Shown here in pieces: positions 8,619-57,375 of a stretch of DNA of 64,000 nt. The stretch's first letter is position 1. The number at the start of each line of letters is the position of its first letter. The DNA is taken from NCBI GenBank assembly GCA_020348265.1, contig CP070744.1, positions 4,993,559 to 5,057,558 on the forward strand, read 5' to 3'. Position numbers and translations under genes: made by a program. The DNA is from Phycisphaerales bacterium (GTDB taxonomy: Bacteria > Planctomycetota > Phycisphaerae > UBA1845). Below the pieces are notes generated by a model. That model saw only the letters and a program-made list of their open reading frames with translations. It had not been told where the DNA came from and did no database searches.

Positions 8619-8883
8619 GATCTGTTCACTCCAAAAATGTAGACCTATAGCCGTGGCCGAGCCGAGCATTGGCCGATATGAAAACCTGGCCCAGCCACCC
8701 TCCATTCAACCTTGCGTTCTCGATAGAAGAAGCATGACGCACGCAGTACAGACCGCCCCCGTACTTTGGCGTTGAAACACACCAACCGCGCTTGCCGATG
8801 CACAGCCATAGCTGGTGCGCGAATGAAGTGCCGGCAACAACGCAGCCCACACAGCGCATCCCGAGGGAGCGGTATAGTCCGCT

Positions 8884-8960: not shown

Positions 8961-10160
8961 TTACGCAATGACGCCTGCGCGTCTGAGTTCCCCAATCTCA
9001 CGCTGTGAGAACCCTGCATCTTCCAGCACACGATCGGTATCGCGCCCATAGGTCGGGGCAAAGGGAAGCGTGCGCTTGCGGGCGGTCAGGTACGCCTGCT
9101 CAACGGCTGGCGGCGGAAGACGCACAGTCTGTCCGGAGGGGGTTTCCGTTCTCAAAAGCCGTTCTTTAATCGGCGGGAATTCCACAACCTGTGGAATCGT
9201 GTGAATCGGAGCGGCAACGAGCCCTTTGCTCGAAAACAGCTCAACAAGCTCAGCGGTGCTGAATCGGTTCGTGATCGAGCCTATCTCCACGTGAATCGCT
9301 TCTCTCTCTTTACGGCGTCCCTCGTTGGTGTCGCGCGTAGGTGATACCAGCGCGCTGAACTCTTCCATTGACGTCAAGCGAGCCCATTGTCCGTCGTTGC
9401 CAATCGCAAGATAGACGTAGCCGTCCGCGGACGGATAGACGTTTACGGGGATGAACTCGCGGTGCTCGTTTCCGCTTCGCCTCACCTCTTCTTGTGTATA
9501 TCCGAGGTCGAGCAGCGGAATGGTGGTCACCAGCCAGGAGGCGGCTGCTTGGGCCATGGAAACATCGATTCGCGAGCCTTCCCCCGTTTGTGTCTTCTTC
9601 GCCAGGGCAAGACACACATTCGCATAGACTTCGTCGCCGGCCTTCAGGTCAACGAAGGGCACGCCGCAAAGCGTGGGTGGGCCCTTGGGATCGCCGGTGA
9701 CCTCCATAAAGCCCGTCATGGCCTGGATTGCGGGGTCGTAACCTGGAGCGTCGGGATAATCCGGCCCCATCGCGGACAGTCCTGCCCAGATCAACCCGGG
9801 GTTGAGTGAGCTGAGTGTTTCGTAATCGATTCCCAGCTCCTTGTAGCGTTTGGGGAGCGTGTTGCTGGCGAACACATCCACCGGCAACTCAGTGATCAGC
9901 CGCTTGAGCGTTTCCCGGCCGGCCTCGTTTTTGAGGTTCAGGCTGATGGTTTCCTTGCCCACGTTTGGCCCAACGAAGTAGGCATGCAAGTCGGGACGTT
10001 CGCCCTCTTTGCCTACATAACGGTTGGGATCGCCCGGAAGCCGATCGCCGGAGGGCGTCGCTTCGATACGAATCACTCGCCAGCCCAGTTGTACGAAACG
10101 CTGGGTTGCGTGACAAAGGGAAAGTGCCTGCTCGAGGGAAAGTACGGTTAGCTTTTCGAT
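8961..10160 (-). CDS. CoA-transferase family III (CaiB/BaiF-like); N-terminus extends beyond the track ORF (8961-10076) and probably starts at a non-canonical ATC codon
   Basis: Family III hallmarks: VIRIEATPSGDRLPGD (cf. VIKVE.P.GD..R) and the internal LNPGLIWAGLSAMGP. In-frame upstream translation IEKLTVLSLEQALSLCHATQRFVQLGWR aligns with the conserved N-terminal [27 protein letters not shown] segment. It contains no ATG/GTG/TTG before a TAA. GGAG lies 8 nt upstream of ATC (10160-10158). Confidence 0.7.
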   Translation of the reverse strand: MEKLTVLSLEQALSLCHATQRFVQLGWRVIRIEATPSGDRLPGDPNRYVGKEGERPDLHAYFVGPNVGKETISLNLKNEAGRETLKRLITELPVDVFASNTLPKRYKELGIDYETLSSLNPGLIWAGLSAMGPDYPDAPGYDPAIQAMTGFMEVTGDPKGPPTLCGVPFVDLKAGDEVYANVCLALAKKTQTGEGSRIDVSMAQAAASWLVTTIPLLDLGYTQEEVRRSGNEHREFIPVNVYPSADGYVYLAIGNDGQWARLTSMEEFSALVSPTRDTNEGRRKEREAIHVEIGSITNRFSTAELVELFSSKGLVAAPIHTIPQVVEFPPIKERLLRTETPSGQTVRLPPPAVEQAYLTARKRTLPFAPTYGRDTDRVLEDAGFSQREIGELRRAGVIA

Positions 10161-10211
10161 GACTTGGGCTCCGTTAACAGATTATCACCCGATTGCGAGG
10201 AGCAGGCGTTC

Positions 10212-12632
10212 TCATTCGGCCGGCCGGCTGGCCGCTTTCAGGTGCGCCAATACCTTCTCCGGGGTGAGAGGCAACTCTCTGATGCGTACGCCAGCGGCGT
10301 TGTACACTGCGTTGGCTACCGCTGCCGCCACGGGGATCAGGGGCGACTCGCCGACCCCCTTTGCTCCGTATGGGCCTGCGGGATCATTCGTCTCGACGAA
10401 GGAGAGCTCCATCTCGGGCACATCCCACGTGGTCATTAGCTTGTAGTCGGTGAAAGAGGGATTGAGCACTCGTCCCTCGGACACCTTGACCTCTTCGGAC
10501 AGGCAGTATCCAAGACCCTGCACAATGCCACCCTCGATCTGACCTTCGAGTCCGAGGCGGTTGATCACCCTGCCTACATCATGGGTCGCGCACACCTTGA
10601 TCACCTTGACTACACCGGTGTCGAGGTCGACCTCCACCTCGGCGACATGGGTTCCGAAAGCGTAGCAGGCGGAGATGTCGCCCATTTGGTCCTCATCGGG
10701 CGCCGTACTCGGCGGCTCGTAGAAATCCGTGGTCATGATCAGCTCGTTCTTGCTGCCGAAGTGCAGGCCACGAATGATCTTGCCTATCGATTCGAGAGCT
10801 TCGCCGGTGGCGCCATCAACTACCTTTCCCTCGGAAAGGTCAAGCTGATCAGGTTCACGTTTCAAGCGGGCCGCAGCTGCTGCGAGGAGTTTACGTCTTG
10901 CCTCGCGCGCAGCTCTTAGAACGGAGTTGCCTGCTATAAACGTAGTTCTGCTGGCATGTACACCCACGTCCCACGGGGTCAGCTCCGTGTCATTGTTAAT
11001 TACGCGGATGTTCTTCATTGGGAGGCCTAACCCCTCGGCGACAATCTGGGCGAGGACCGTCTCGGAGCCCTGGCCGATCTCGGATGACCCGGTAAGAACC
11101 GTCACCGCGCCGAAGTCGTCGAGCTTCAGAATCGTGCCGCACCCGTCAGAGCGGTATATCTTGGCTCCGCCCCCGACGTGGAAGAAGGAAGCCATGCCCA
11201 CACCTCGCACCATGCTTCGACAATGAGAACAGGCGATGCCCGCTTGTTCCTTTGTCCGCTCCCTCACGGTCGCGGCTCGGTTTGGCGTTTCGGTTTGTTG
11301 ATTTCTCGATGCTTCGGCTTCTCTACGTTTGGTCTCCCAGCCGGCGTTGGCGGCCGATGTTTCGAGGCATTCCTTAAGCCCGCAAGTGCGCAGCACCATC
11401 CCTTGCCCGGTGGTTTCACCAGGCTTTTGGGCGTTTATGAGTCGAACGTCGAGGGGATCCATTCCCAGCTCATCCGCCAATTGATCGATCTGAGACTCGA
11501 GGGCGAAGGTAGCCTGCGGATTTCCGTAGCCCCTAAACGCGCACGCGTAAATGTTGTTTGTGTAGATTATGTCCGCGTGTTGGCGGACATGAGGCACGCG
11601 ATAGAGCGAGGAGAAGCTGCGCATCATGATCCAGGGAGTGGTTGCCCCCCAGGAAGTGCGCCCACCGTTGTCCAGGGTCATGCGCACATCACGGAAGGTA
11701 AACGTGCCGTCTTTCCGGGCACCGCTTCGCATGTATATAACAGCATTCTGGCGCGTCGGTGTGGCCAGGAACTCCTCTTCGCGGGTGAAGACGAGCTTCA
11801 CGGGCCGTGACGTCTTCATGGCCAGAAATATACAAATGGGCTCAAAGGGATGGATGTCCAGTTTGCTACCGAAGCCCCCGCCGATTGGTGGTTGGATGAT
11901 CCGGATTTTCTCCGGGGCTACCCCTACGATGCGCGCCAAATCGTTCTTGTACAGAAAAGGGACCTGGGTCAGAGAGTGTAGAGTCAATCTCCCGTCGGCA
12001 TCGAAGCTGGCGATGATTCCTGATGTACCCAGGCAACAGTGGGCCTGGCGTTGGAGCGTGTAGGTATCCTCGACGATGATGTGGGAATCTCCGACTCCTG
12101 CTTCTATGTCTCCATGCGAGTAGTCGTAGCGGAAGGGCGTGTTATCCGCGATTTTTTCATGGATGATCGGAGCGCCATCGGCAACGGCCTCTTCAGGCGA
12201 TGCAACCACCGGCAGATCTTCGTAGGTCACTCGAATGCGTTTGACGGCCTCCGCCGCTATCTCGGGTGTGTCAGCCGCCACCGCCGCCACCTCGTCGCGG
12301 ATGCACGTTACCTTGTCCGCTTTGAGGGCGGTGTTGTCTTGCCCGTATCCGAAAGGTACGAGGTTGATGTCCGCAGCGGTGATTACCGCCCGGACTCCTC
12401 GCATGGCCCTGGCAGCGGACGTATCGATACTGACGATGCGGGCATGAGGTCGATCGGCAAAGAGGATCTTCCCATAGAGCATGCGCGGGAAGTTGAGATC
12501 TTCGATGTAACGGGCGAGCCCTGTGGCTTTCTCAGGGGCGTCGAGCTTGGGGATTCGCCGTCCGATGAGAGTATCTTTCTTGGTCCTTCGTTTCGGGGTT
12601 GCTACGCTCGCGGCCTCAAACATCGTCAGCAC
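10212..12632 (-). CDS. xanthine dehydrogenase/aldehyde oxidase/CO-dehydrogenase-family molybdopterin-binding large subunit (CoxL-like)
   Basis: 806 aa. N-terminal a/b-hammerhead region (RIPKLDAPEKATGLARYIEDL), the IYACAFRGYGNPQ active-site loop, and a Mo-binding large-subunit architecture. Confidence 0.9.
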   Translation of the reverse strand: MLTMFEAASVATPKRRTKKDTLIGRRIPKLDAPEKATGLARYIEDLNFPRMLYGKILFADRPHARIVSIDTSAARAMRGVRAVITAADINLVPFGYGQDNTALKADKVTCIRDEVAAVAADTPEIAAEAVKRIRVTYEDLPVVASPEEAVADGAPIIHEKIADNTPFRYDYSHGDIEAGVGDSHIIVEDTYTLQRQAHCCLGTSGIIASFDADGRLTLHSLTQVPFLYKNDLARIVGVAPEKIRIIQPPIGGGFGSKLDIHPFEPICIFLAMKTSRPVKLVFTREEEFLATPTRQNAVIYMRSGARKDGTFTFRDVRMTLDNGGRTSWGATTPWIMMRSFSSLYRVPHVRQHADIIYTNNIYACAFRGYGNPQATFALESQIDQLADELGMDPLDVRLINAQKPGETTGQGMVLRTCGLKECLETSAANAGWETKRREAEASRNQQTETPNRAATVRERTKEQAGIACSHCRSMVRGVGMASFFHVGGGAKIYRSDGCGTILKLDDFGAVTVLTGSSEIGQGSETVLAQIVAEGLGLPMKNIRVINNDTELTPWDVGVHASRTTFIAGNSVLRAAREARRKLLAAAAARLKREPDQLDLSEGKVVDGATGEALESIGKIIRGLHFGSKNELIMTTDFYEPPSTAPDEDQMGDISACYAFGTHVAEVEVDLDTGVVKVIKVCATHDVGRVINRLGLEGQIEGGIVQGLGYCLSEEVKVSEGRVLNPSFTDYKLMTTWDVPEMELSFVETNDPAGPYGAKGVGESPLIPVAAAVANAVYNAAGVRIRELPLTPEKVLAHLKAASRPAE

Positions 12633-13107
12633 CTCTTACGGCCAGCGACAGGATGGCCTCGATGATCTTCTGATAGCCCGTACAACGGCAGAGATTGCCC
12701 TCCAGGCCGCGTTTGACTTCGTCCTCCGTTGGAGCGGGGTTTGACTCCAGCAACGCATAGGCAGCCATGATCATGCCCGGCGTGCAAAAGCCGCATTGTA
12801 CCGCACCGTAATCCACGAACGCCTTCTGGATCGGGTGGAGCTGTCCGTTGCTTTCCAACCCTTCGATGGTCAGGACTTTTGATCCTTCACATTCGACAGC
12901 CAACACCAGGCATGAGTTGACCACCCTACCATCGAGCAGCACGGAACACGCCCCACATTCGCCCTCGCCACAGCCGTACTTAGTGCCGGTGAGCTCGAGC
13001 CCGTTGCGGAGGACGTCCAGCAAGGTGGCCGTCGAGGGAGCCATAATGGTGACGGACTCGCCGTTGACGACCATGCCAATCTGGATTCGATCAAGAACTT
13101 GCGGCAC
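12616..13107 (-). CDS. [2Fe-2S]-binding small subunit of the molybdenum hydroxylase (CoxS-like)
   Basis: GCGEGECGACSV..., CGFCTPGMIM and NLCRCTGYQKI cysteine motifs; 163 aa. Confidence 0.9.
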   Translation of the reverse strand: MPQVLDRIQIGMVVNGESVTIMAPSTATLLDVLRNGLELTGTKYGCGEGECGACSVLLDGRVVNSCLVLAVECEGSKVLTIEGLESNGQLHPIQKAFVDYGAVQCGFCTPGMIMAAYALLESNPAPTEDEVKRGLEGNLCRCTGYQKIIEAILSLAVRGADDV

Positions 13108-13951
13108 GCTGCAATATCCTCCTCAACATCGCCGCTACGACATCGCGGCGGTACGCTTGAGAAGCTCGCACATCCGTGATTGGCTTGATCTCCTCACGAG
13201 CGGCGTTCTCACATCTGTTGATGACTTCCGGTGAGAGCGCCATGCCAAGCAACTCTGCTTCCGCGGCTTTTCCACGCAAGGGAACAGGTGCGACGGAGCC
13301 GTATCCCACGCGAGCCCGCGAAATCACGCCGCCCCCCAACTCAACCGCCACGCCAACAGATGCGACGGCAATCTCCATCGCAGGGCGCGTGCCGAACTTG
13401 TCCCAAGCGGAGAACGCGCCTTGAGGCACCGGTTTGAAGCGCAGATGAGTCACGATTTCTCCCGGTGCGACAACCGTGGCGCCGGGGCCTTTGAAGAACT
13501 CTTCAATGGGTACGGTACGGATGGTCGCACCGCTATCAGTATGCGTGGCAACCTCCACTTCCGCGTCGAGCAGTAGGAGGGGGATCGCGCTGTCTGCCGC
13601 CGGTGAGGCGTTACACAGGTTTCCGCCAATGCTAGCCCGATTCCGAATCTGCGGGCAGGCGACGCGCCCCACAGCCTCTGCCAAGATCGGTGCGGCGGCC
13701 CGGATCAGAGGGTCCGCCTCAATCTCGCTCATCGACGTACACGCCCCGATGCGGATATCGCCATTTGCGCGCGATACGCCCTTGAGGTCTTCGATGTGCT
13801 TCAAATCAACGATGGACGCGGGTCGGTCCTGCACACCCGCCGACCAACGTGGAAGCAGGTCCGTCCCACCCGCGAGGGGCGAAACGGGCCAGGCAGATCG
13901 CCCGATCAGCGACAGTGCCTCCTCGATTGTTTTGGGGCGATGATAGATCAA
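13091..13951 (-). CDS. FAD-binding medium subunit of the molybdenum hydroxylase (CoxM-like)
   Basis: MIYHRPKTIEEALSLI N-terminus, AGGTDLLP motif, 286 aa. Gene order M-S-L with 4-nt overlaps. Confidence 0.85.
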   Translation of the reverse strand: MIYHRPKTIEEALSLIGRSAWPVSPLAGGTDLLPRWSAGVQDRPASIVDLKHIEDLKGVSRANGDIRIGACTSMSEIEADPLIRAAAPILAEAVGRVACPQIRNRASIGGNLCNASPAADSAIPLLLLDAEVEVATHTDSGATIRTVPIEEFFKGPGATVVAPGEIVTHLRFKPVPQGAFSAWDKFGTRPAMEIAVASVGVAVELGGGVISRARVGYGSVAPVPLRGKAAEAELLGMALSPEVINRCENAAREEIKPITDVRASQAYRRDVVAAMLRRILQRAASS

Positions 13952-14340
13952 CCCGGAGCCAATCTATGCGGCCCGCTTGTCGAACATCTCGACTTCAGGG
14001 CCGTTCAAACCTCATGCGACCGTACCCACGCAGCCAAGCCGACTTTAATAATGCAGACCCGAACACGCCGCAAGCTCCGCATCTCCGCAACCTGACCAGA
14101 CTCGTTCTGTGACTTCCCTTGCGAGTCAATCTGCACTTAACCTTGAGCATTCGTGGTCAAGCAGTCTGATGTTGATTGGAAGGGATGGGAGGCAGCAGCC
14201 GGATACTCCGCAGGGTGTTTCAAAGGTCGACTTGCTGACGTACGATACCGCGTGCCGTGGATCATCACGAATGCTGACCCTGAGGGGTTCTCCGGGAAGA
14301 TGATTCGGCATTTTTCGTGCTCTGTAGCTTGTTGAGGAAC

Positions 14341-14405
14341 GTAGCGCCACCCCTTGTGGGTGGCGCCGTGCGGCGGTTCTCGCCGCCCACAGGGGGTGGC
14401 GCTAC
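14341..14405. repeat. palindromic repeat element, copy A (inverted arms GTAGCGCCACCCCTTGTGGGTGGCGCC / GCCGCCCACAGGGGGTGGCGCTAC)
   Basis: Left arm 14341-14367, right arm 14382-14405, spacer ~14 nt. Each arm is itself internally palindromic. The element ends 20 nt before the iorA start codon. Confidence 0.6.
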
Positions 14406-14425
14406 ACTTGGGTCGCCGGAACGGG

Positions 14426-16351
14426 ATGCGCGAGGAGGCGACGTTCGTGAGTGCTGCCCCGACCCATGAGATCCTGCAGGACAGCCCCGGCACCCGTTTA
14501 TGTCTATTGGGAAATGTGGCGATTGCCCGCGGGGCGCTTGAGGCAGGTGTCCAGTTCTTTTCCTGCTATCCGGGTACACCTTCCTCGGAGGTCGGCGACA
14601 CGTTTGCCCGCATCGCCGAGGAAGCCGGGGTCAAGTTCGAGTACTCCGTCAACGAGAAAATAGCCGTCGAGGTGGCCTTTGCCGCTTGTCTGACCGGGGC
14701 GCGCTCCATGTGCAGCATGAAGCACCTGGGTCTGAACTACGCTAACGACCCCATCTCCACCATGCCCTATGTCGGCGTGGAAGGAGGTATGGTTATCGTG
14801 TCGGCAGGCGACCCCTCAGCCATCACCAGCCCCAACGAGCAGGATCAGCGTCACTTCTGCAAGTTTCTTTACTATCCGGTGTTTGATCCAGGCACCCCGG
14901 ACGACGCCCTGCGCACGACCCGCTATGCGTTTGCATTCTCTGAACAAACGCGTCTGCCGGTTATCATACGCCCGACTACGCGCGTTTGTCATAGCAGCGG
15001 AATGGTCACGCTGGGCAAGCTACCCGGCGGGCGCAATGAGATACACTTCGACAAGGATCCATCCCGTTACGTGCCTATCCCGATCAATGCTCGACGCATG
15101 CGCAAAGAGCTGACCGAGAGGTTTGAGCTGGCATCGACCTTGTTGCGGGAGTCTGATTTCTACCCTCGAAGAGGTGAGGGGCGCCACGGTATCATGGCCA
15201 GTGGCGTCAGTTATGCTTACGCCTCTCAGATTCTCGATGACTTGGGACTATGGGATCAGGTTACTCTTCAGCAGATTGGGGCATATCCGATTCCCGAGTC
15301 GATACTCCGTGATTTCCTAGGTGCTGTTGACTCTGTTCTTCTTGTCGAGGAGCTCACCCCATATATGGAGGATTGGGTCGCCGAGGCGGCAAGTCGTGCT
15401 GCACAGCAAGTTCCTCTGTTCGGCAAGCGCACGGGACATTTTCCCATGGAGTTCGAGTATTCCCCTGATCTGGTCGAAGATGCTGTTCGACAGTATCTGG
15501 GGATGACATCACGTTCTTCACTGTCCGTGGATGTCCCCGAGCTTCCGGAACTTCCTCCGCGCCCGCCGGTGCTCTGCCCTGGGTGTCCGCACCGTGCTGC
15601 TTACTATCTTGTAAGGAAGGTATTCGGGAAAAACACAACATACTGTAATGACATTGGCTGCTATACGCTTGGATACGGCGAACCGCTCAATGTCTGTGAC
15701 GTCCTGTTGTGTATGGGAGCTTCCATCACACAGGCATCCGGAATCGCTCGAATGACGGGAAAGCGGACGGTGGCGTGCCTGGGTGATTCGACGTTCTTCC
15801 ATAGCGGGCTGCCTGCCCTTGCCAATGCACTGCAGGCTCGCGATGACGTAACGGTTATCATATTGGATAATTTCATAACGGCAATGACAGGGTTTCAGCC
15901 GAGTCTGACGAGCAATCGAGGGGATCGTGGCTCCGCTGGGCGACACGGTCCGTCGGTGTCCGGCATATCCAAGATGCGCTTTTCCATTGAGGGCGTAGTG
16001 CGCGGCCTCGGTGTCCAGGATATCTATTCTGTAGACCCCTACGACGAAGCGGCTATGACCGAAGCGCTCAAGCAAGCCAAGAGCGCAGAAGGTGTGAACG
16101 TACTCGTTTGCCATTCACCCTGCATGGTTAATGAAAGACGATTAGGTCATCACCAAGAACGCGTGCCTCTGAGAATCAATGTGGACAAGTGCAACGGCTG
16201 CTCATTGTGCGTGCGATTGCTGGGTTGTCCCGGGATCCTGGTGAGTGGCGGTCACTATATGATAGATGACGAGCTTTGTGTTGGCTGCGGCCTTTGTGCC
16301 AATGTGTGTAAACATGATGCCGTTGAGCCGATTGCGGTTGAGAAGATTTGA
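14426..16351 (+). CDS. iorA: indolepyruvate:ferredoxin oxidoreductase alpha subunit (IorA; TPP-binding, with C-terminal 2x[4Fe-4S] domain)
   Basis: CPGCPHRAAYY, GDSTFFHSG (TPP), CNGCSLCVRLLGCPGI and CVGCGLCANVC ferredoxin motifs. The track ORF start at 14354 reads through the repeat element; the Met at 14426 is preferred. Confidence 0.9.
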   Translation: MREEATFVSAAPTHEILQDSPGTRLCLLGNVAIARGALEAGVQFFSCYPGTPSSEVGDTFARIAEEAGVKFEYSVNEKIAVEVAFAACLTGARSMCSMKHLGLNYANDPISTMPYVGVEGGMVIVSAGDPSAITSPNEQDQRHFCKFLYYPVFDPGTPDDALRTTRYAFAFSEQTRLPVIIRPTTRVCHSSGMVTLGKLPGGRNEIHFDKDPSRYVPIPINARRMRKELTERFELASTLLRESDFYPRRGEGRHGIMASGVSYAYASQILDDLGLWDQVTLQQIGAYPIPESILRDFLGAVDSVLLVEELTPYMEDWVAEAASRAAQQVPLFGKRTGHFPMEFEYSPDLVEDAVRQYLGMTSRSSLSVDVPELPELPPRPPVLCPGCPHRAAYYLVRKVFGKNTTYCNDIGCYTLGYGEPLNVCDVLLCMGASITQASGIARMTGKRTVACLGDSTFFHSGLPALANALQARDDVTVIILDNFITAMTGFQPSLTSNRGDRGSAGRHGPSVSGISKMRFSIEGVVRGLGVQDIYSVDPYDEAAMTEALKQAKSAEGVNVLVCHSPCMVNERRLGHHQERVPLRINVDKCNGCSLCVRLLGCPGILVSGGHYMIDDELCVGCGLCANVCKHDAVEPIAVEKI

Positions 16352-17020
16352 ATGAGTTCACCAAAGTGTGAGTCTGACGCGAAGGGCTGGCGCATTTTGA
16401 TTGCTGGCACCGGTGGTCAGGGAGCGTTGACGGCCGCCCGCGTGTTATGTGGCGTGTTTGTACGGCGCGGGCATGATGTGGTGAGCGGCCAGTTGCACGG
16501 TATGGCTCAGCGGGGAGGAAGTGTGCAGTCGTCCGTGTTGATCGACACCGGGATCAGCCCGGTCATTGGAGCTGGTCAAGCCGACTGCGTGTTGGGTTTT
16601 GAGCCGGTTGAGACGGCACGTGCCCTTTCGTTGATGTCGAAGAACACCACAGTATACATGAACACGTGCGCGGTAGTTCCGTTTGTCGTCGGGCAGCAGT
16701 TGGCGCTAACGAGGGCGGGGGCCGGCTATCCAGCAGTGAAGGATCTCATAGACTGCCTGAAGAAGGTCGCGCAGCGAGTATTCTCATTTGATGCAATGCA
16801 GCGTGCCTTCGACGCTGGATCGCCCAAGGCGCTCAACATGGTTATGTTGGGGTGTCTGTTGGGGTCTGAAGCGCTGCCATGTACAGCAGATGAGTTTTGG
16901 ACCACGACGCTCAAGACCATGCCGTCGAAACTTAAACAGATCAATACTGCTGCGTTCTTTGCCGGCGTTGAATGGGCAAGGGAAGTAGGAAACGCTGCGG
17001 TGGAGGCAAGCGGATCATGA
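16352..17020 (+). CDS. iorB: indolepyruvate:ferredoxin oxidoreductase beta subunit (IorB)
   Basis: ILIAGTGGQGALTAARVL N-terminus, ~220 aa, immediately downstream of iorA (stop/start abut). Confidence 0.85.
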   Translation: MSSPKCESDAKGWRILIAGTGGQGALTAARVLCGVFVRRGHDVVSGQLHGMAQRGGSVQSSVLIDTGISPVIGAGQADCVLGFEPVETARALSLMSKNTTVYMNTCAVVPFVVGQQLALTRAGAGYPAVKDLIDCLKKVAQRVFSFDAMQRAFDAGSPKALNMVMLGCLLGSEALPCTADEFWTTTLKTMPSKLKQINTAAFFAGVEWAREVGNAAVEASGS

Positions 17021-19131
17021 CGATTAGAATCGGCATCGACGTTGGCGGTACCTTCACGGACTTTCTTGTCCTTCGAGATGACAAAGATCCGCAGATCTTT
17101 AAGGTGCTTTCCACACCCGCCGATCCTTCTATCGGTCTGATCAACGGCCTTACCGAGATCGCCGCGAGCTTTGATCTTAAGCTCGGTGAGCTTGCTACTT
17201 CGATCGACACAATTGTCCACGGGACGACCGTTACGACGAATGCAGTGTTGACGCACGGCGGTGCCCGGACAGGTCTTTTGACCACGGAGGGTGTGCGTGA
17301 TGTTCTGCAGATGCGTCGGGGGATACGCGAGGAGCAATACAATAACCGCTATACAAACGTGCCTCCTCTTGTGCCGCGCTATCTGCGCCGGCCGATCAAG
17401 GGGCGATTGAACTACTGCGGTGAGACCCTGCGAGCGCTTGACGTTGAGGGTGCCCTTGAGGCAATTCGCGTGTTTAAGAGGGAAGGCATTGAGGCTGTCG
17501 CCATCTGCTTCATGAATTCCTTCGCGAATCCGCAACAGGAGAAAGAGGCGGCCGAGCTTGTCCGCACGGAGCTGCCTGGTGCGTACTTGACGGTATCCTC
17601 GGATTTCCTTCCCTCAATACGCTTCTATGATCGGGTCAGCTCAACAGTGCTTAATTCTTATGTGGGTCCCAAGCTCAGCTCTTACCTTGATCGTCTGCGG
17701 TTTCGTCTCAAGGAGATTGAATTCGGAGGGATACTGTTACTTATGCAGTCCAATGGGGGCGTGATGGCTCCTGGCGTGGCCAGGGATAGTCCAGCACGTA
17801 CGTTGCTCTCCGGCCCGGCTGCTGGACCGGGCGCCGGGCTTGGGTATGTCCGCCTGCATGGATATGAAGACTGTATAACTGTGGATATGGGCGGTACAAG
17901 CTTTGATGCGGCTCTGGTGCGCGACGGTAAACCTATCGTGGTCACCGACGGCGAGATCAACCGTTACCGAATTGCGCTCCCCATGTTGGATATTGTGACC
18001 ATTGGGGCAGGCGGGGGTAGTATAGGATGGATCGACGAAGGAGGGTTGTTGCGCCTTGGACCACAAAGCGCAGGAGCGGATCCCGGACCGGTATGTTATG
18101 GAAAGGGAGGAACGCTGCCGACGTGTACGGACGCGGATCTTATTCTGGGTTATCTTGACGCCGACTTTTTTGCGGGTGGTAAGATCAGGCTAAATAAGGA
18201 TGCTGCTGCCGGCGCAATCGAGGGACATATCGCACGACCACTGAACATGTCCGTCGAAGAGGCGGCGGCAGGTATGTATCGCGTGATCAATACGAATATG
18301 GCCCAGGGTGTTCGACAGATTACCGTCAAGCGCGGCTTCGATCCCAGGGAGTTTCCATTGGTGGCTGCGGGTGGCGCTGGACCGTTGCATTCATGTATGA
18401 TCTGCCACGAGTTGGAAATCCCCATGTTCATTGTGCCTCGGGAATCTTCTATCTTCTGTGCTGCCGGGATGTTGATGAGTGACCTTCAGCACGACTTCGT
18501 CCGCTCCTTTGTCTCTGTCTTCGAGCATATTGAGTGGGCACAGCTCAACGCGGTGATTAGCGAGATGATGCAGGAGGGCGCTGAGCTTCTCAGGCAGGAG
18601 AATATTCCCGAGGAAAGGCGACGGTTCGTACTGAACTTGGATTGTAGGTATCTGAAGCAGTACCATGAGGTTTCCTTCCCCGTGGCATTAGAGACGGTTC
18701 GTAGGGCGGATGCGACGAGCATTTCCGAGGCGTTTCACGCCGAACATTTGAAGATGTATGGCTACTCTCTGGAAGAGGAGAAGGCTCCCGTCGAACTGAT
18801 TAACGTTCGCCTGCGGGCTGTCGGGGACACAGAGAAGCCTACCTTTGCTGAGGAGGCGTGCGTTGGAGCGGATCCTGAAGATGCGTTGAAGGGCCGCCGC
18901 GCCGTCTACGTTCCGGAAGAGCGGACCTTGCAGGATGTCGCCGTGTATGACGGACACCGGACGCGCTGCGGACACAACATCCCTGGCCCCGCCATAATCG
19001 AACAGGTCAATACGACCCTGTTCATCAGTTCATCTTACGACTGTCTCTGCGACTGTTATGGCAGTTTCGTGACATATCGAAAAGGGCAGGAGGATCGTCT
19101 TCCCGTGACGTTGCAGGAGATGAAGGTATGA
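17017..19131 (+). CDS. hydantoinase/oxoprolinase family protein, A (beta) subunit-like (HyuA/AcxA/CapA-like)
   Basis: MTIRIGIDVGGTFTDF N-terminus (hydantoinase_A hallmark). ATGA start/stop overlap with iorB. Confidence 0.85.
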   Translation: MTIRIGIDVGGTFTDFLVLRDDKDPQIFKVLSTPADPSIGLINGLTEIAASFDLKLGELATSIDTIVHGTTVTTNAVLTHGGARTGLLTTEGVRDVLQMRRGIREEQYNNRYTNVPPLVPRYLRRPIKGRLNYCGETLRALDVEGALEAIRVFKREGIEAVAICFMNSFANPQQEKEAAELVRTELPGAYLTVSSDFLPSIRFYDRVSSTVLNSYVGPKLSSYLDRLRFRLKEIEFGGILLLMQSNGGVMAPGVARDSPARTLLSGPAAGPGAGLGYVRLHGYEDCITVDMGGTSFDAALVRDGKPIVVTDGEINRYRIALPMLDIVTIGAGGGSIGWIDEGGLLRLGPQSAGADPGPVCYGKGGTLPTCTDADLILGYLDADFFAGGKIRLNKDAAAGAIEGHIARPLNMSVEEAAAGMYRVINTNMAQGVRQITVKRGFDPREFPLVAAGGAGPLHSCMICHELEIPMFIVPRESSIFCAAGMLMSDLQHDFVRSFVSVFEHIEWAQLNAVISEMMQEGAELLRQENIPEERRRFVLNLDCRYLKQYHEVSFPVALETVRRADATSISEAFHAEHLKMYGYSLEEEKAPVELINVRLRAVGDTEKPTFAEEACVGADPEDALKGRRAVYVPEERTLQDVAVYDGHRTRCGHNIPGPAIIEQVNTTLFISSSYDCLCDCYGSFVTYRKGQEDRLPVTLQEMKV

Positions 19132-20864
19132 GCGAAGTTGATCCGATCTTGTTGTCCGTATATGCACGTTCCTTCAAGTCCACCACGGATGAGATGAGTA
19201 TTTCGCTTCAGAAGACCACACGCTCACCTATTCTCTGCGAGGCAAAGGATTTTGTTACCGGTATTTACGACGCAGAGGGGAATATACTCGAGCAGACGGA
19301 AAACCTTCCTATACTGTCGTTTTCTCTCGGGCCGGTATGCAAGTATATTGTCGATTACTTTGGGGATAAGATCTACCCAGGCGACGTAATCTTCCATAAC
19401 GACGTTTTCAGCATGGGCAATCAAAACAACGACGTCGCCGTGTACAAGCCGATCTTCCTCGATGACAGGGTGGTGGCATGGTCGGCCTGCAAGGGACACC
19501 AGGCGGACATCGGTGGTGCGGTTGCCGGTGGTTACAACCCCAATGCTACGGAAGTGTGGCAGGAGGCGCTGCGCATTCCACCGGTGAAAGTATGTGAGAG
19601 AGGCGAGTTGCGCAAGGATGTATGGGATCTGATCTTCGCCAATATCCGCTTCGACATTGTGCAGCACGACCTGCGGGCGCAGATGGGTTCATGTGTGGTG
19701 GGGGAAAGGTGCATCCTGCGCCTGCTCGAGAAGTATGGACTGGAGTGCTTCGAGACGCACAAGAAAGCACTCTTCGAGGCGACTCGGCGTATGATGGAGG
19801 CTGAGATCGGAACGATCCCTAACGGTGAATACCGTGGGGAGTCAACGATTTACTTTGACGGGCGCAATCAGGACAGGCATTATCAAATCCGTGTGAAGAT
19901 CACAGTTGAAGACAGGCACATTAAGTTTGACTACACGGGTACCGATGCCCAGTCGAATGCTTTCGTAAACGGCACGTATACGTCGAGCGCGTCGGCCACC
20001 ATACTGACATTCCTTCAGATGGTTAACCCTGACATCCCCCATAATCAGGGAATGGTGGAGCCGATCGAGATTATTATTCCTGAGGGGACGATTCTGAATG
20101 CGGCATTTCCGGCTGCTACAACGTATGGGAATCATCTGTGCCCACCCAATGCGGATGCGATCGCCAGGGCTCTGGCTCCTGTGGTTCCCGATCGAGTGAC
20201 GGCAGGTTGGAATCACTTGCTCTGTTCGTTGACGACCGGAGTCGATCCGCGGAAAGACGACAAGTACGTGGACATTTGCTTTATGGGACTCAAAGGCGGG
20301 TCGGGGGCCTTGAACGGCGTGGATGGGTACGATCACATCGGCATGATCGACGCATCCGGGGGTTTGCTCGATCAAGACTATGAGATGTTCGAGCAACAGA
20401 CCCCGCATGTCTTGGTGAAGCATGAGTACCTATGCGACTCAGCCGGTGCGGGACAGTGGCGTGGTGGTCTGGGCGTCGAGACGATCTTCGAAATAGGCTC
20501 AGATAATACTCAGCTTGTGATCTTCGGCGACGGCGACGTTGAACCGGCGTTTGGACTTCTCGGCGGCGGCAAGGGCAGCCTTAACTCGATTTCGGTGCGC
20601 TATCCGGATGGGAGGGAGCACACACCATTGCCTCTGGATCTGCTCACCGGCGTACCCAAAGGAACCGTTTATCATCAGGTAGCCGGCGGTGGCGGCGGGT
20701 ATGGCGATCCGCATAAGCGCCGCAAGAATGAGGTCTTTGAGGAGGTGCGCAACGAGGTAATCTCGGTGGAAGCTGCGCGGGATGTATATGGTGTAGCTGT
20801 GGATCGTCAGATACTTGAGATCGACCAGGCTGCAACGAGTTTACTTAGGAACGGAGGAGGTTAG
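19128..20864 (+). CDS. hydantoinase/oxoprolinase family protein, B (alpha) subunit-like (HyuB-like)
   Basis: 578 aa, hydantoinase_B-like. ATGA overlap with the upstream A-subunit gene. Confidence 0.85.
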   Translation: MSEVDPILLSVYARSFKSTTDEMSISLQKTTRSPILCEAKDFVTGIYDAEGNILEQTENLPILSFSLGPVCKYIVDYFGDKIYPGDVIFHNDVFSMGNQNNDVAVYKPIFLDDRVVAWSACKGHQADIGGAVAGGYNPNATEVWQEALRIPPVKVCERGELRKDVWDLIFANIRFDIVQHDLRAQMGSCVVGERCILRLLEKYGLECFETHKKALFEATRRMMEAEIGTIPNGEYRGESTIYFDGRNQDRHYQIRVKITVEDRHIKFDYTGTDAQSNAFVNGTYTSSASATILTFLQMVNPDIPHNQGMVEPIEIIIPEGTILNAAFPAATTYGNHLCPPNADAIARALAPVVPDRVTAGWNHLLCSLTTGVDPRKDDKYVDICFMGLKGGSGALNGVDGYDHIGMIDASGGLLDQDYEMFEQQTPHVLVKHEYLCDSAGAGQWRGGLGVETIFEIGSDNTQLVIFGDGDVEPAFGLLGGGKGSLNSISVRYPDGREHTPLPLDLLTGVPKGTVYHQVAGGGGGYGDPHKRRKNEVFEEVRNEVISVEAARDVYGVAVDRQILEIDQAATSLLRNGGG

Positions 20865-20912
20865 TACGTAGCCAGAGGCACTTTGGGTTGCTGTCCAGGT
20901 GAGGATAGGTAA

Positions 20913-22043
20913 ATGAACTTCGAGTTGTCCGAAGAGCAGCGAATGGTGCGGGACACTTTTGTACGAGTGTGTGACGAAAGGATCAAACCTGCTGCTGCCC
21001 AGATTGACGAGGCCCACGAGTTTCCCCGCGATTTATTTACTGAACTGGGCAAACTGGGGCTGTTCGGTTTGCGCTATCCCGAATTACTCGGTGGTTCGGA
21101 TCTCGGGTTTACCGCAAGCTGTATAGCCATAAGTGAGGTCGCACGGGGTTCGATGTCGCTCGCAGCCGCGGCGACGATGCAGTCTCTGATGGCCACGGAT
21201 TTCCTCCATCGATACGGTAATGAGGACATTCACCGACGTCTGCTGGTTCCTGCGATCCAAGGCGAGAAAATCGGAGCGATCTGTATCACCGAACCTGACG
21301 CGGGTAGTGATCTGTCGTCAATTTCCACGTCCGCAGAGATAATCGATGGAGGCTATCGCCTGAATGGACAGAAGACGTGGATTACCGGAGCTCCTGTGGC
21401 GGATTTTTTTACCGTGTTTGCCCGGACCGGCGAGCAAAGCCAGCTAACCGTATTTCTGGTTGAGCGTGACTTTCCCGGTCTCGCAATAGGCAGGGCGATT
21501 GAGAAGATTGGATGTTGGGCGTTGCCTACTTCAGAGGTATTCTTCGACAACTGCTTCGTACCCACTGATTACCGTTTGGGTGAGGAAGGCGAAGGTGAGA
21601 AGAGCCTGCGCAGGATTCTCAATGAGATCCGCACGATAACTGGAGCGCTGGCTATAGGCTGTGGTCGTGGGGCACTTGAGGAGGCCATTCAATATGCGGC
21701 GGAAAGGAAGCAGTTTGGCAAGTTGATTAACCGTTTCCAGGCTATACAACTCAAGCTGGCCGAGATGGGCACTGCTCTGGAGGCCGCCATCCACCTCGTA
21801 CATTATGCTGCTTGGTTGAACGAGAATGAGAGACCTTGTACGCGTGAAGCGGCAATGGCCAAGCTCTTTGCCACCGAATGCGCCGTGGACATCTGCGACA
21901 AGGCCACGCGCATCCTGGGGTCGTACGGCTATGCCACGGAATTCGCAGCTCAGCGACACTTTCGGGATATCCGTTTCACGCTCTATGGTGGTGGGACCAG
22001 CGAGATTCTCAAACTTCTGATCGCCAGGGATATGACTGCGTGA
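20913..22043 (+). CDS. acyl-CoA dehydrogenase family protein
   Basis: ACAD N-, middle and C-domains (GAICITEPDAGSDL, QKTWITGA). The C-terminal motif reads LYGGGTSEI instead of the canonical YEGT. Confidence 0.85.
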   Translation: MNFELSEEQRMVRDTFVRVCDERIKPAAAQIDEAHEFPRDLFTELGKLGLFGLRYPELLGGSDLGFTASCIAISEVARGSMSLAAAATMQSLMATDFLHRYGNEDIHRRLLVPAIQGEKIGAICITEPDAGSDLSSISTSAEIIDGGYRLNGQKTWITGAPVADFFTVFARTGEQSQLTVFLVERDFPGLAIGRAIEKIGCWALPTSEVFFDNCFVPTDYRLGEEGEGEKSLRRILNEIRTITGALAIGCGRGALEEAIQYAAERKQFGKLINRFQAIQLKLAEMGTALEAAIHLVHYAAWLNENERPCTREAAMAKLFATECAVDICDKATRILGSYGYATEFAAQRHFRDIRFTLYGGGTSEILKLLIARDMTA

Positions 22044-22087
22044 GCCCTTACAGTGCGTCCGGGGTGTGCAAACAAGGAGGCAAGGTG

Positions 22088-22486
22088 ATGTCGCGAGAAA
22101 AGAGGGTGCGGGTACTTGTTGCAAAACCCGGATTAGATGGGCATGACGTAGGGGCTAAGGCCGTCGCCCGCACCTTGATGGATGCCGGCTTCGAAGTTGT
22201 CTATACCGGACTGAAAAAGTCCCCCGAGGAAATAGTTCTGCGGGCACGCGAAGAGAAGGTGGATGTACTTGGCCTGTCTATACTATCCGGCTCACACATT
22301 CCCATCTGCCAACAGATAAAGAACCTGCTGGATAAACACGAGGTGCCTCCTTTGCTATGGATCGTAGGTGGCAACATTCCACTCCAGGATCACGATGAAC
22401 TCAGGCGGATTGGAGTCGATGGCGTCTTCGCAGTTGGATCGTCTCTTCAGGAAATCATCGACTTCATCAACGAGAGAATATCATGA
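22088..22486 (+). CDS. B12-binding subunit of a methylmalonyl-CoA-mutase-family acyl-CoA mutase (small subunit)
   Basis: RVLVAKPGLDGHDVGAKAVARTLMDAGFEVVYTG (the DxHxxG cobalamin-binding motif). The track ORF is over-extended upstream to 21878. Confidence 0.8.
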   Translation: MSREKRVRVLVAKPGLDGHDVGAKAVARTLMDAGFEVVYTGLKKSPEEIVLRAREEKVDVLGLSILSGSHIPICQQIKNLLDKHEVPPLLWIVGGNIPLQDHDELRRIGVDGVFAVGSSLQEIIDFINERIS

Positions 22487-24093
22487 AATGGGAAGAGAGG
22501 TCTGAAGTTAGACCCGTGTTCAACGAGTCCGGGCTTGAAATCAAGCCGGTCTATTCGCCCGAGGATGTTGAGGAATCCGGGGGATGGAATAGCATCGGCT
22601 CTCCAGGGGAATTCCCCTTCACACGCGGAATTCATAAAGAAATGTATCGGAAACGCCCCTGGACCATGCGCCAGTATGCGGGTTTCGGCAAACCGGAGGA
22701 AACTAACGAGCGTTTTCGCTATCTCATAGCCAATGGGCAGACGGGTCTGAATGTGGCTTTCGATCTACCGACCCAGAGTGGGTTGGATTCGGATGACCCT
22801 GCCGCCCAGGGTGAGGTGGGCCGAGTGGGCATGGCTGTTGATACGCTCAAGGATTTCGAGATTGCATTCGACGGCATCGATCTCGATAAGATAACCGTGT
22901 CTCTGACGATTAACGGGGCCGCGGTTACTCTGATTGCCATGTACTTCGCCATGGCCAAGAAGCGCGGGTATGACATAAGCAAGCTGCGCGGGACCGCCCA
23001 GAACGATATTCTCAAGGAATTCGTTGGCCGGGGAACATGGGTCTTCCCGGTGGAACCTTCAATCAAACTTGTCGGTGACACCATCCTCTACTGTGCGGAG
23101 AATGCTCCTCTGTACAGCCCGGTCAGCGTTTGTGGTTACCATATTCGCGAATCAGGGGCCAATCCGATCCAAGAGATGGCTTATGCATTCTGCATTGCCA
23201 AAGCATACATTGACCACGTGCTTGAAAGAGGAATGGAGATTGACGAGTTTGCCTCGCGCCTCTCATTCAACTTCGACATTCATGGGAATATATTCGAACA
23301 GGTGGCCAAGTTTCGCGCAGGCAGGCGACTGTGGGCCAAGATCCTCAAGACGGACTATGGAACGCAGAATCCCAAGTCGATGTGGTTACGAATGATTGCG
23401 GGCGGCGGCGGCGGCGGCCTGACTATCGAGCAGCCCGAGAATAACATAATCCGAACGGCTTATTATGCGCTGGTCAGTGCTTTGTCGGGCACACAGACGA
23501 TGGCGCTGTGCTGCTACGACGAAGCATACACCATTCCCTCGGAGAAGGCCGCCCGTGTAGCGCTAAGAACAATGCAGATTCTCGTCGAAGAGATGGGATT
23601 GTGTGACACCGTGGATCCCCTGGCTGGATCATACTACATCGAGACGTTGACCAACCAAATGGAGGAGAAGATCCGCGCTCTTATGAAGGAGGTTGATGCA
23701 CAAGGAGGTATCGTAAAGGCCATCGCTGAGGGACATATACAGAACACCGTCTCCAAGCAGGCATTCGAGAACCTGCGGAAACTTCAAAGCGGTGAAACGC
23801 GCAAGGTGGGTGTCAACTGCTATCGAATCGAGGAAGAGCAGCAGGCTGTCGAGTTTCATCGATTCAAGGAGGAGGATTGCGCGGAGCAGATTGCCCGATT
23901 GAATAAGGCACGATCCGAACGGGATAGCGCGAGAGTGGGCAACGCATTGGCGACCGTATTGGATGAAGCCAAAGCGGGGCGCAACGTAATGCCTGCGATT
24001 ATCAATGCAGTGGAGGCTTATGCGACGGTCGGCGAGATCACTCAGTGCCTGGTGGATGTATACGGCCGGTATGAAGAGCCGGTACGTTTCTGA
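22483..24093 (+). CDS. methylmalonyl-CoA-mutase-family catalytic (substrate-binding TIM-barrel) subunit
   Basis: FPFTRGIHKEMYRKRPWTMRQYAGFG...NERFRYLIANGQTGLNVAFDLPTQ; 536 aa. ATGA overlap with the B12-subunit gene. Confidence 0.85.
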   Translation: MKWEERSEVRPVFNESGLEIKPVYSPEDVEESGGWNSIGSPGEFPFTRGIHKEMYRKRPWTMRQYAGFGKPEETNERFRYLIANGQTGLNVAFDLPTQSGLDSDDPAAQGEVGRVGMAVDTLKDFEIAFDGIDLDKITVSLTINGAAVTLIAMYFAMAKKRGYDISKLRGTAQNDILKEFVGRGTWVFPVEPSIKLVGDTILYCAENAPLYSPVSVCGYHIRESGANPIQEMAYAFCIAKAYIDHVLERGMEIDEFASRLSFNFDIHGNIFEQVAKFRAGRRLWAKILKTDYGTQNPKSMWLRMIAGGGGGGLTIEQPENNIIRTAYYALVSALSGTQTMALCCYDEAYTIPSEKAARVALRTMQILVEEMGLCDTVDPLAGSYYIETLTNQMEEKIRALMKEVDAQGGIVKAIAEGHIQNTVSKQAFENLRKLQSGETRKVGVNCYRIEEEQQAVEFHRFKEEDCAEQIARLNKARSERDSARVGNALATVLDEAKAGRNVMPAIINAVEAYATVGEITQCLVDVYGRYEEPVRF

Positions 24094-24169: not shown

Positions 24170-24237
24170 GTGTAGCGCCACCCCTTGTGGGTGGCGTCTT
24201 TCGAGGCTTCACGTCGTCCACGAGGGGCGGCGCTACA
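24170..24237. repeat. palindromic repeat element, copy B
   Basis: GTGTAGCGCCACCCCTTGTGGGTGGCG (24170-24196)...GTCCACGAGGGGCGGCGCTACA (~24216-24237). It lies between the mutase stop and the M32 peptidase start, inside the 5' leader of the latter. Confidence 0.55.
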
Positions 24238-24294
24238 TTATTCAACAGGCTGTCAGACCACGACGGCACACTCAACAAGGACAAGGATAAGGGA

Positions 24295-35178: not shown

Positions 35179-35245
35179 TGTAGTGTCACTCTTTGTGGGT
35201 GACGAGGGAATCGCAAGGACGCCGCCCACAAGGGACGGCGCTACA
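35179..35245. repeat. palindromic repeat element, copy C (diverged)
   Basis: TGTAGTGTCACTCTTTGTGGGTGACG (35179-35204)...GCCGCCCACAAGGGACGGCGCTACA (35221-35245). It lies between the convergent beta-helix and flotillin genes. Confidence 0.5.
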
Positions 35246-54812: not shown

Positions 54813-54825
54813 CCGGAGTACGCAA

Positions 54826-56802: not shown

Positions 56803-56820
56803 GTAGAAGGAATATCAGGA

Positions 56821-57366: not shown

Positions 57367-57375
57367 GGGGACGAC

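Follow-up and report, generated by a model that had tools for sequence, protein, structure and literature searches.

The 64,000-nucleotide (nt) stretch analyzed here as a whole, called the window, is taken from contig CP070744.1 of a Phycisphaerales bacterium (assembly GCA_020348265.1, positions 4,993,559 to 5,057,558) and contains eleven catabolic genes that are arranged in two divergent units. The minus-strand unit encodes the medium, small, and large subunits (MoM, MoS, and MoL) of a molybdenum (Mo) hydroxylase, followed by a family III CoA-transferase. The plus-strand unit starts with iorA and iorB, the two genes assigned to an indolepyruvate:ferredoxin oxidoreductase (IOR), and continues with a hydantoinase-like pair (HyuA and HyuB), an acyl-CoA dehydrogenase (ACAD), and the small and catalytic subunits (MutS and MutL) of a split coenzyme-B12 mutase. 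Judged from their sequences, these genes probably form an iaa-type operon for the oxygen-independent breakdown of the indoleacetyl group, with the two-subunit IOR predicted to act as entry enzyme instead of a ligase. Tryptophan, and not free auxin, is thereby suggested as the starting compound of the pathway.

Gene identities were checked by open reading frame (ORF) listing and by Pfam and NCBIfam scans, and the expected domains are present in 11 of 11 genes (Table 1). A first-pass annotation had listed this inventory on two divergent strands, together with three ATGA stop/start overlaps at 17017, 19128, and 22483; every gene is found in its place, and the overlaps can be read directly in the sequence. 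The overlap at 17017 joins the stop of iorB to the start of the hyuA-like gene, and iorB is herewith translationally coupled to the hydantoinase-like gene; the iorA stop is directly followed by the first base of iorB. For the three Mo subunits, the mechanical ORF starts give overlaps of 17 nt between neighboring genes. Three starts were corrected: that of iorA is most likely GTG 14447, which lies behind GAGGAGG, instead of TTG 14354, that of the small mutase subunit is ATG 22088, and that of the CoA-transferase is described next.

Upstream of its first canonical start, GTG 10076, which is the mechanical ORF start, the reading frame of the CoA-transferase shows conservation over a further 28 codons. 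The codon that aligns with the ATG or GTG starts of the orthologs is an ATC at 10160 (10158-10160, minus strand) with GGAG before it, and a protein starting here has a length of 399 amino acids (aa). This ATC may serve as a rare start codon, or it may reflect a mutated start or an error in the sequence.

No sigma-70 consensus site was found in the intergenic region between the two units, and scans for sigma-70 promoters and terminators at both operon ends were uninformative. An Rfam scan of 8-26 kb gave only sub-threshold matches to miRNA models, located on the palindrome, and hence no riboswitch is seen in this range.

Table 1. Features of the divergent locus, with positions in the window, strand, and supporting evidence
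Feature	Position	Strand	Evidence
Family III CoA-transferase, IaaL ortholog (phenylsuccinyl-CoA transferase type)	8961..10160	-	PF02515, 216.8 bits
Mo-cofactor large subunit of xanthine oxidase (XO)-family hydroxylase, 806 aa	10212..12632	-	Ald_Xan_dh_C + MoCoBD_1/2
2x[2Fe-2S] small subunit of Mo hydroxylase, 163 aa	12616..13107	-	Fer2 + Fer2_2
FAD-binding medium subunit of Mo hydroxylase, 286 aa	13091..13951	-	FAD_binding_5 + CO_deh_flav_C
Divergent intergenic region between Mo/CoA-transferase unit and iorA unit, presumed promoter	13952..14446	.	Sequence read
65-nt perfect palindrome, REP-like, shortly upstream of iorA	14341..14405	.	Fold -61.2 kcal/mol, z = -8.3
IorA, IOR alpha subunit	14447..16351	+	TIGR03336, 659 bits
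IorB, IOR beta subunit	16352..17020	+	PF01558
Hydantoinase_A-type subunit, IaaC ortholog (ATP-binding subunit of lactam-opening hydrolase)	17017..19131	+	Pfam
Hydantoinase_B-type subunit, IaaE ortholog	19128..20864	+	PF02538, 475.7 bits
ACAD, IaaF subclass (decarboxylating benzylmalonyl-CoA dehydrogenase)	20913..22043	+	GGG for YEG
B12-binding small mutase subunit (IaaG/H pair), 132 aa	22088..22486	+	PF02310; DGHDVG
Coenzyme-B12 acyl-CoA mutase catalytic subunit (phenylsuccinyl-CoA/benzylmalonyl-CoA mutase type), 536 aa	22483..24093	+	PF01642, 646 bits
Second copy of 65-nt palindrome, directly 3' of mutase stop	24172..24236	.	Fold -48.9 kcal/mol, z = -8.2

Relation to the iaa operon of Aromatoleum

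The iaa operon for anaerobic indoleacetate degradation in Aromatoleum aromaticum and Azoarcus evansii is said to have been described in work by Ebenau-Jehle (2012) and Schuhle (2016, 2021). Relatives of the window ACAD were taken from a 50%-representative protein library, and those with the GGG motif discussed below were aligned (five-sequence alignment). An alignment-based scan covering one genome per GTDB species recovered 80 loci, against which the eleven window proteins were searched by tblastn. The locus of Aromatoleum toluclasticum (L059) serves as the reference, with a coverage of at least 0.9 for every protein. The identities to L059 are 64% for HyuA, 74% for HyuB, 65% for ACAD, 52% for MutS, and 71% for MutL; for MoM, MoS, and MoL, they are 40%, 52%, and 55%, respectively, and for the CoA-transferase 57% at a coverage of 1.0. 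Nine window genes are orthologous over their full length to Aromatoleum iaa genes at these 40-74% identities (iaaC, iaaE, iaaF, iaaG, iaaH, those of the Mo enzyme, and iaaL), a range that also holds for the second Aromatoleum locus, L061, at a coverage of at least 0.9. Together with the gene order of close relatives, the GGG motif, and the placement of the ACAD in the clade with the Aromatoleum IaaF orthologs, the comparison identifies the locus as a true relative of the Aromatoleum iaa operon in Phycisphaerales, and the assignment to iaa made in the first-pass annotation is supported.

The order in L059 and L061 (Aromatoleum sp.) is thiolase, AMP-ligase, HyuA, HyuB, ACAD, MutS, MutL, MoM, MoS, MoL, CoA-transferase, and periplasmic binding protein, and it recurs in other Rhodocyclales, Burkholderiales, Candidatus Desulfobacillus, and others. 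The flanking genes of L059 were confirmed by Pfam. This order matches the published one, in which IaaB is the ligase, IaaC/E the hydantoinase-like pair, IaaF the ACAD, IaaGH the mutase, IaaL the transferase, and IaaM the binding protein (PMC8360864 and the caprolactamase paper).

In Planctomycetota, the collinear order IorA-IorB-HyuA-HyuB-ACAD-MutS-MutL-MoM-MoS-MoL-CoA-transferase is found in L002, L003, L055, L087, and L088, with the contig of L055 stopping within MoL, ahead of the CoA-transferase. The core order of Aromatoleum is exact in L002, L003, L087, and L088, whereas in the window and in L068, which shares its divergent layout, the Mo/CoA-transferase block is inverted upstream. A thiolase follows the CoA-transferase in L003, L087, and L088; as measured in L003, it is 56% identical to the IaaA-type thiolase of Aromatoleum. 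The same 11 genes stand together in at least seven other contigs and in two arrangements. Hence, their grouping is not due to chance, and the fact that the set has stayed together through a rearrangement speaks well for a functional unit. The best 120 ACAD protein clusters among the matches listed are all at least 70% identical to the window ACAD, and those with a source name come from Phycisphaerae or Planctomycetota. The first-pass annotation had linked the pathway to denitrifying Aromatoleum and Azoarcus only. The link itself stands with the nine orthologous core genes; the restriction to denitrifiers does not, since iaa-like clusters have already been reported from strict anaerobes, i.e. 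Desulfatiglans, other sulfate reducers, and Ferroglobus (PMC8360864).

Some of the recovered loci differ in content. Two Phycisphaerales contigs carry partial copies: in CP070685 (L005/L081), HyuB exists only as a 212-aa fragment and IorAB, HyuA, and the CoA-transferase are missing, and CP070827 (L086) has a 92-aa POR fragment and a 161-aa mutase fragment, without Mo genes. It seems that some Phycisphaerales genomes are losing the pathway. In the iaa-type cluster of an Acidiferrobacteraceae metagenome-assembled genome (MAG) (L062), whose available sequence shows no ligase and no IorAB, the HyuA-type gene is immediately preceded by genes for a TetR regulator and a TrpB-like pyridoxal phosphate enzyme (368-2609; NF009057 for the latter, 732 bits versus a cutoff of 366), which provides a further connection with the metabolism of tryptophan or indole. 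The operon of L088 contains a nucleotidyltransferase/HEPN (HepT-like) toxin-antitoxin pair between its mutase and Mo genes (13427-14093), and such a pair directly follows the thiolase in L087 (19646-20363). The 3' end of both clusters, after the thiolase, is formed by a gene for a 649-aa Fe-S flavoprotein of the FadH/old-yellow-enzyme type (L087 20541-21131, L088 20664-21131), possibly a downstream enoyl- or dienoyl-CoA reductase. A tblastn search of a plasmid collection with the ACAD for an annotated iaa cluster gave Massilia putida as its best match (44.6%); this was rejected, as the gene sits in an unrelated cluster for beta-oxidation and electron-transfer flavoprotein (ETF).

Dehydrogenases of the IaaF type contain GGG instead of the catalytic YEG and are all located in iaa operons (PMC8360864). 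The window ACAD carries GGG for YEG (...FTLYGGGTSEIL), with the segment around the motif reading ...RDIRFTLYGGGTSEIL, and 82 of the 86 ACADs from the genome scan share this motif. In a neighbor-joining tree of these 86 proteins, the Planctomycetota clade adjoins a small group of Gemmatimonadota, Chromatiales, and Bacteroidetes MAGs. The next branch is the proteobacterial IaaF clade including Aromatoleum, and the types from Desulfobacterales, Desulfatiglandales, NaphS2, and Rokubacteria are much farther off. By its GGG motif, its place in an iaa-type cluster, and its grouping with the Aromatoleum orthologs in this tree, the window ACAD can be assigned to the IaaF subclass.

The HyuA-type subunit contains both ATP-phosphate motifs as defined in the caprolactamase paper, i.e. 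P1 (DVGGTFTD) and P2 (DMGGT). Its matches in the PDB are caprolactamase (506 bits), N-methylhydantoinase (485), acetophenone carboxylase (Apc, 349), and Acx (257). Acetone and acetophenone carboxylases were rejected as identities of the pair, with scores of 368 versus 1500 for ApcC and 102 versus 1500 for ApcD and with HyuA being nearer to lactamases; no extra small-subunit gene for a carboxylase gamma (or epsilon) subunit lies within 17017-20913. The genomic context and the 64-74% identity to the IaaC/E orthologs suggest a 2-oxoindole-type lactam as substrate.

In the mutase, the DGHDVG of the small subunit represents the DxHxxG motif, and the best PDB match is the split HcmA. The Tyr, Arg, and His of the carboxylate site of methylmalonyl-CoA mutase (MCM) are kept, whereas Ile and Gln stand in place of the first two in 2-hydroxyisobutyryl-CoA mutase; the retained Tyr/Arg site agrees with a substrate of the succinyl type, for instance (2-aminophenyl)succinyl-CoA. 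MCM itself was rejected, with a score of 538 against the cutoff of 876 for NF006944 and with the B12-binding (132 aa) and catalytic (536 aa) parts on separate subunits.

The large subunit of the Mo hydroxylase contains the motifs GGGFGSK-L, FRGYGNPQ, and GVGE (catalytic Glu). Its best PDB match is the alpha subunit of 4-hydroxybenzoyl-CoA reductase (4-HBCR; 395 bits versus 275 for CoxL), which fits a CoA ester as substrate. All NCBIfam equivalogs score below cutoff, with XdhA as the best match. The small subunit has eight Cys at the canonical positions, and the FAD subunit has no CxxC cluster and hence no Fe-S insertion of the 4-HBCR type. Three known enzymes were considered for this protein and rejected. 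For CO dehydrogenase (CODH), the aligned segment is NIYACAFRGYGNPQ, i.e. neither the VAYRCSFR of form I nor the AYRGAGR of form II, and the models score 329-369 against cutoffs of 950-991. For xanthine dehydrogenase (XDH), Leu is found where the substrate-binding Glu, which we take to be bovine Glu802, follows directly after GGGFGGK, and XdhA (NF043082) scores 586 against 780. For 4-HBCR, the scores are 582 versus 995 (alpha), 120 versus 405 (beta), and 177 versus 258 (gamma), and the FAD subunit is a 286-aa protein without CxxC. The Mo enzyme is proposed to act on the indole ring by hydroxylating C2.

Two lineages of the Mo/CoA-transferase block are present in Planctomycetota. For the three Mo subunits and the CoA-transferase, L003, L052, L055, and L068 belong to the lineage of the window (56-62/67-74/74-79/74-75% identity to it), as opposed to L002 and L069 (~40/54/59/57%). 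The Hyu, ACAD, and mutase genes are uniformly close across both, which suggests that the block has been exchanged as a module.

The entry module

Enzymes of the IOR family convert arylpyruvates to arylacetyl-CoA. The window IorA passes the cutoff of TIGR03336 (659.0 versus 650.9) and contains the GDS..N motif for thiamine pyrophosphate (TPP) and C-terminal Cys clusters (two [4Fe-4S] motifs). IorB reaches a best score of 157.5 against a cutoff of 238, and its top matches are all IOR-beta models, all of them below cutoff. Orthologs of IorA with 63-69% identity occupy the same position in L002, L003, L054, L055, and L068.

Entry modules were counted over the close-clade (type-I) loci that have sequence upstream of the core. 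An IorA-IorB entry is present in eight loci, of which seven are Planctomycetota (window included) and one is an uncultured Chromatiales MAG (L054, IorA 63%). Thiolase (IaaA) and indoleacetate-CoA ligase (IaaB) form the entry in 13 loci, all from Proteobacteria. The two modules are mutually exclusive across the type-I loci, and IorAB takes the position in Planctomycetota that IaaA-IaaB has in Proteobacteria. Within the 64-kb window, tblastn with the L059 proteins gave no match for an IaaB-like ligase or an IaaA thiolase. The single systematic difference from the proteobacterial iaa operon is the 5' end, with IorAB versus IaaA and IaaB.

IOR genes are linked to more distant iaa-like clusters as well. 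A two-subunit IorAB, ~35% identical and at or near the TIGR03336 cutoff, stands at the 5' end of the clusters of Desulfobacula sp. (L038), Desulfobacterales (L032/L042), and a Chloroflexota MAG (L047). A fused IOR (PRK13029, ~1200-aa type) directly follows iaaL/iaaM in two betaproteobacterial loci (L056 18680-20236, L058 14290-15540), and these operons also retain the ligase.

In the published scheme, the pathway starts from indoleacetyl-CoA, which is made by the ligase IaaB (PMC8360864); hence, the IOR substitutes for a known step and adds none. The first-pass annotation had proposed that an IOR feeds tryptophan-derived indolepyruvate into a pathway beginning with free indoleacetate. The feeding is supported by the comparative genomics, i.e. 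IorAB at the IaaA-IaaB position, but as a replacement of the ligase step rather than as an additional one. Likewise, the downstream enzyme set matches iaa as proposed, whereas free indoleacetate as the start gives way to the indoleacetyl-CoA of the current published model. Since indoleacetyl-CoA is the published starting compound and an IOR forms an arylacetyl-CoA, the most economical interpretation has IorAB in the place of the ligase, and the pathway would then be entered one step earlier, at the compound that transamination of tryptophan yields.

What the locus adds is this IOR entry replacing the ligase and a host phylum, Planctomycetota, that is not known to have been linked to the iaa pathway before. 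No description of an IOR inside iaa clusters was found in the literature searched; Ebenau-Jehle 2012 and Schuhle 2016 lie outside it, and an earlier description is possible.

Predicted pathway and competing explanations

The predicted route would begin with the conversion of tryptophan to indole-3-pyruvate by an aminotransferase encoded elsewhere. For the steps of IorAB, the Mo enzyme, and the hydrolase, we infer the substrates as follows. IorAB would convert indole-3-pyruvate to indoleacetyl-CoA by oxidative decarboxylation, reducing ferredoxin. The three-subunit Mo hydroxylase would oxidize C2 of the pyrrole ring to the 2-oxo (lactam) form, and the ATP-dependent hydantoinase-like pair would open this lactam to (2-aminophenyl)succinyl-CoA. 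The subsequent three steps are proposed from the literature on the Aromatoleum enzymes. Herein, the family III CoA-transferase would shift CoA onto the correct carboxyl, the split B12 mutase would rearrange the skeleton to (2-aminobenzyl)malonyl-CoA, and the IaaF-type dehydrogenase would oxidize and decarboxylate the latter to 2-aminocinnamoyl-CoA. Beta-oxidation enzymes from outside the window would finally produce 2-aminobenzoyl-CoA and acetyl-CoA.

Several points weigh against this route. Characterized IORs also accept phenylpyruvate and 4-hydroxyphenylpyruvate, and sequence alone gives no IOR substrate range; in methanogens, IOR can work in the anabolic direction. As the CoA-transferase has no canonical start codon, its expression could be impaired. 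The comparison rests on A. toluclasticum and not on the biochemically studied proteins of A. aromaticum EbN1, and decayed copies of the cluster exist in related genomes. For this pathway, the 64-kb window encodes neither an aminotransferase nor an ETF, enoyl-CoA hydratase/dehydrogenase, thiolase, transporter, or regulator. Finally, the Mo subunits, which are expected to set the ring specificity, are the least conserved proteins (just 40-55% identical to Aromatoleum) and fall into two divergent lineages within Planctomycetota.

This divergence of the Mo subunits, together with the generally broad range of IOR enzymes for arylpyruvates, would suit an iaa-type pathway that acts on another aryl- or heteroarylpyruvate-derived CoA ester (a substituted indole or another N-heterocyclic acetyl-CoA), with neither tryptophan nor indoleacetate as the physiological substrate. 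Such a substrate is unlikely, given that HyuA, HyuB, ACAD, and MutL are 64-74% identical to their Aromatoleum counterparts, a level that usually conserves the substrate, and that the IaaF GGG motif is retained; moreover, a lactam opening followed by a mutase and a decarboxylating dehydrogenase is sensible only for an indole-3-acetyl-type skeleton. It is more doubtful still that IorAB is a mere neighbor or has another role (aromatic amino-acid fermentation, ferredoxin reduction, or anabolic reductive carboxylation of arylacetyl-CoA), with free indoleacetate being activated by a ligase or CoA-transferase elsewhere. The frequency of IOR in peptide fermentation, its reversibility in methanogens, the many peptidase genes of the window, and the capability of IaaL-type transferases for intermolecular CoA transfer (PMC8360864) are compatible with a separate role. 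They are opposed by the ATGA overlap between iorB and the hyuA-like gene, by the same 5' position of IorAB in eight loci from two phyla despite the rearranged rest of the operon, by the mutual exclusion of IorAB and IaaA-IaaB, and by the two other kinds of IOR genes linked to other iaa-like clusters.

Unrelated chemistry by members of the same families, i.e. an acetone/acetophenone carboxylase, a propionate-type MCM, and a CO or xanthine dehydrogenase or 4-HBCR, is highly improbable. The family-level Pfam matches are common to all of these, and the best PDB and NCBIfam matches of the Mo subunit are 4-HBCR alpha and XdhA; yet the equivalogs for XdhA, 4-HBCR alpha, CODH, ApcC, and MCM all stay far under their cutoffs, and the gene order is that of the iaa operon. 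The first-pass annotation had itself set several of these enzymes against iaa, and none of them is borne out by the sequences. The hydantoinase-like pair is nearer to ATP-dependent lactamases and comes without a gamma subunit, the mutase misses the cutoff of the MCM equivalog, and the Mo enzyme lacks both the CODH loop and the equivalent of the XDH Glu802, which is replaced by Leu, with a FAD subunit free of the Fe-S insertion.

With the tryptophan-fed iaa route thus preferred, a serious if tentative possibility is that Phycisphaerae and some Chromatiales, Desulfobacterales, and Chloroflexota use a ligase-free, fully CoA-bound anaerobic tryptophan route, in which an IOR delivers indoleacetyl-CoA to the iaa enzymes. 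If this is true, the substrates of the Mo hydroxylase and of the hydantoinase-like hydrolase are CoA thioesters and not free acids, and the "auxin" pathway is in nature mainly a catabolic pathway for tryptophan and peptides with interchangeable entry modules, i.e. AMP-ligase, two-subunit IOR, and fused IOR. To our knowledge, the iaa pathway of Aromatoleum/Azoarcus is the only biochemically characterized route for degrading the indole side-chain skeleton without oxygen, and it is framed there as auxin degradation. Because the ligase is swapped for an IOR, tryptophan is the likely feedstock here. Moreover, the combination of a missing ligase with an enzyme that forms a CoA ester favors the CoA-ester route for the first two iaa steps, and the cluster supplies candidate enzymes for the question of free acid versus CoA ester. 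With an IOR as entry enzyme, the ATP that a ligase splits to AMP would be saved and reduced ferredoxin would be gained. The cluster hence offers testable candidates for anaerobic tryptophan catabolism and a candidate answer to how the tryptophan carbon of protein is broken down past indoleacetate in anoxic sediments, with a putative role for Phycisphaerae.

Flanking features and comparison with known systems

The two palindromes of Table 1 and a third at 35181-35244 are copies of a near-perfect palindrome of ~65 nt (GTAGCGCCACCCCTTGTGGG...CCCACAGGGGGTGGCGCTAC; fold z ~ -8). The first two exactly bracket the block from iorA to the mutase. The palindrome was not found in any other fetched locus and looks like a lineage-specific element of the repetitive extragenic palindromic (REP) kind. 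Its copies as the cause of an inversion of the iorA-to-mutase block are unsupported, as the element is missing from the other loci and the third copy lies at 35.2 kb. The Phycisphaerae MAG with the same divergent layout (L068) has different REP-like repeats at other places: this family (CCCCCCTTGGCAAGGGGGG...GGTCCGCACAGCGGACC) is located upstream of iorA and between the genes of ACAD and the small mutase subunit (3300-3431 and 11215-11444).

The window is rich in peptidases. A 2134-aa subtilase with MAM domains (2301-8705, minus strand) adjoins the CoA-transferase, and an M32 carboxypeptidase (24187-25791), a C26 peptidase (46143-46994), and an M1 aminopeptidase (49341-52121) are encoded on the plus strand, the first right after the mutase. 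This neighborhood agrees with a lifestyle of degrading proteins and peptides. Farther downstream (53631-60024, plus strand), genes for an isocitrate/isopropylmalate dehydrogenase, an aconitase-family protein, MmgE/PrpD, and a citrate-lyase-like HpcH/HpaI aldolase-ACP fusion may form a methylcitrate or related organic-acid cluster.

Among known systems, the ATP-dependent lactamases (caprolactamase CapAB, N-methylhydantoinase, and 5-oxoprolinase) are the best structural and profile (HMM) relatives of the window HyuA/HyuB and have both ATP-phosphate motifs in common with it. Compared with CapA and CapB, the window pair scores 667 and 395 against a cutoff of 1000 and is thus below the equivalog level. 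The IorAB of peptide-fermenting archaea and anaerobes has the same domain layout with TPP and ferredoxin-type cluster motifs, and the window IorA reaches the level of TIGR03336, whereas the window IorB scores below the equivalog cutoffs. In contrast to the peptide fermenters, iorAB of the window is coupled to ring-degradation genes and not to an ADP-forming acyl-CoA synthetase yielding free arylacetate.

The iaa-like clusters of strict anaerobes consist of the same enzyme families, with GGG in the ACAD, and those of L038, L032/L042, and L047 also begin with IorAB. However, they are far more distant from the window (ACAD 44-48%, HyuA 34%, IorA 35%) and follow another order, CoA-transferase-ACAD-Mut-Hyu-Mo, whereas the clade of the window groups with the proteobacterial type. 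Compared with the iaa operon of Aromatoleum aromaticum and Azoarcus evansii, the window cluster lacks the IaaB ligase, the IaaA thiolase, the IaaM binding protein, and the GntR/AraC regulators. Instead, it has IorAB at its 5' end, its Mo/CoA-transferase block is inverted as a divergent unit, and its host is a Planctomycetota (Phycisphaerales) MAG rather than a denitrifying betaproteobacterium. The nine core genes are common to both systems, and their order is the same in the close relatives of the window.

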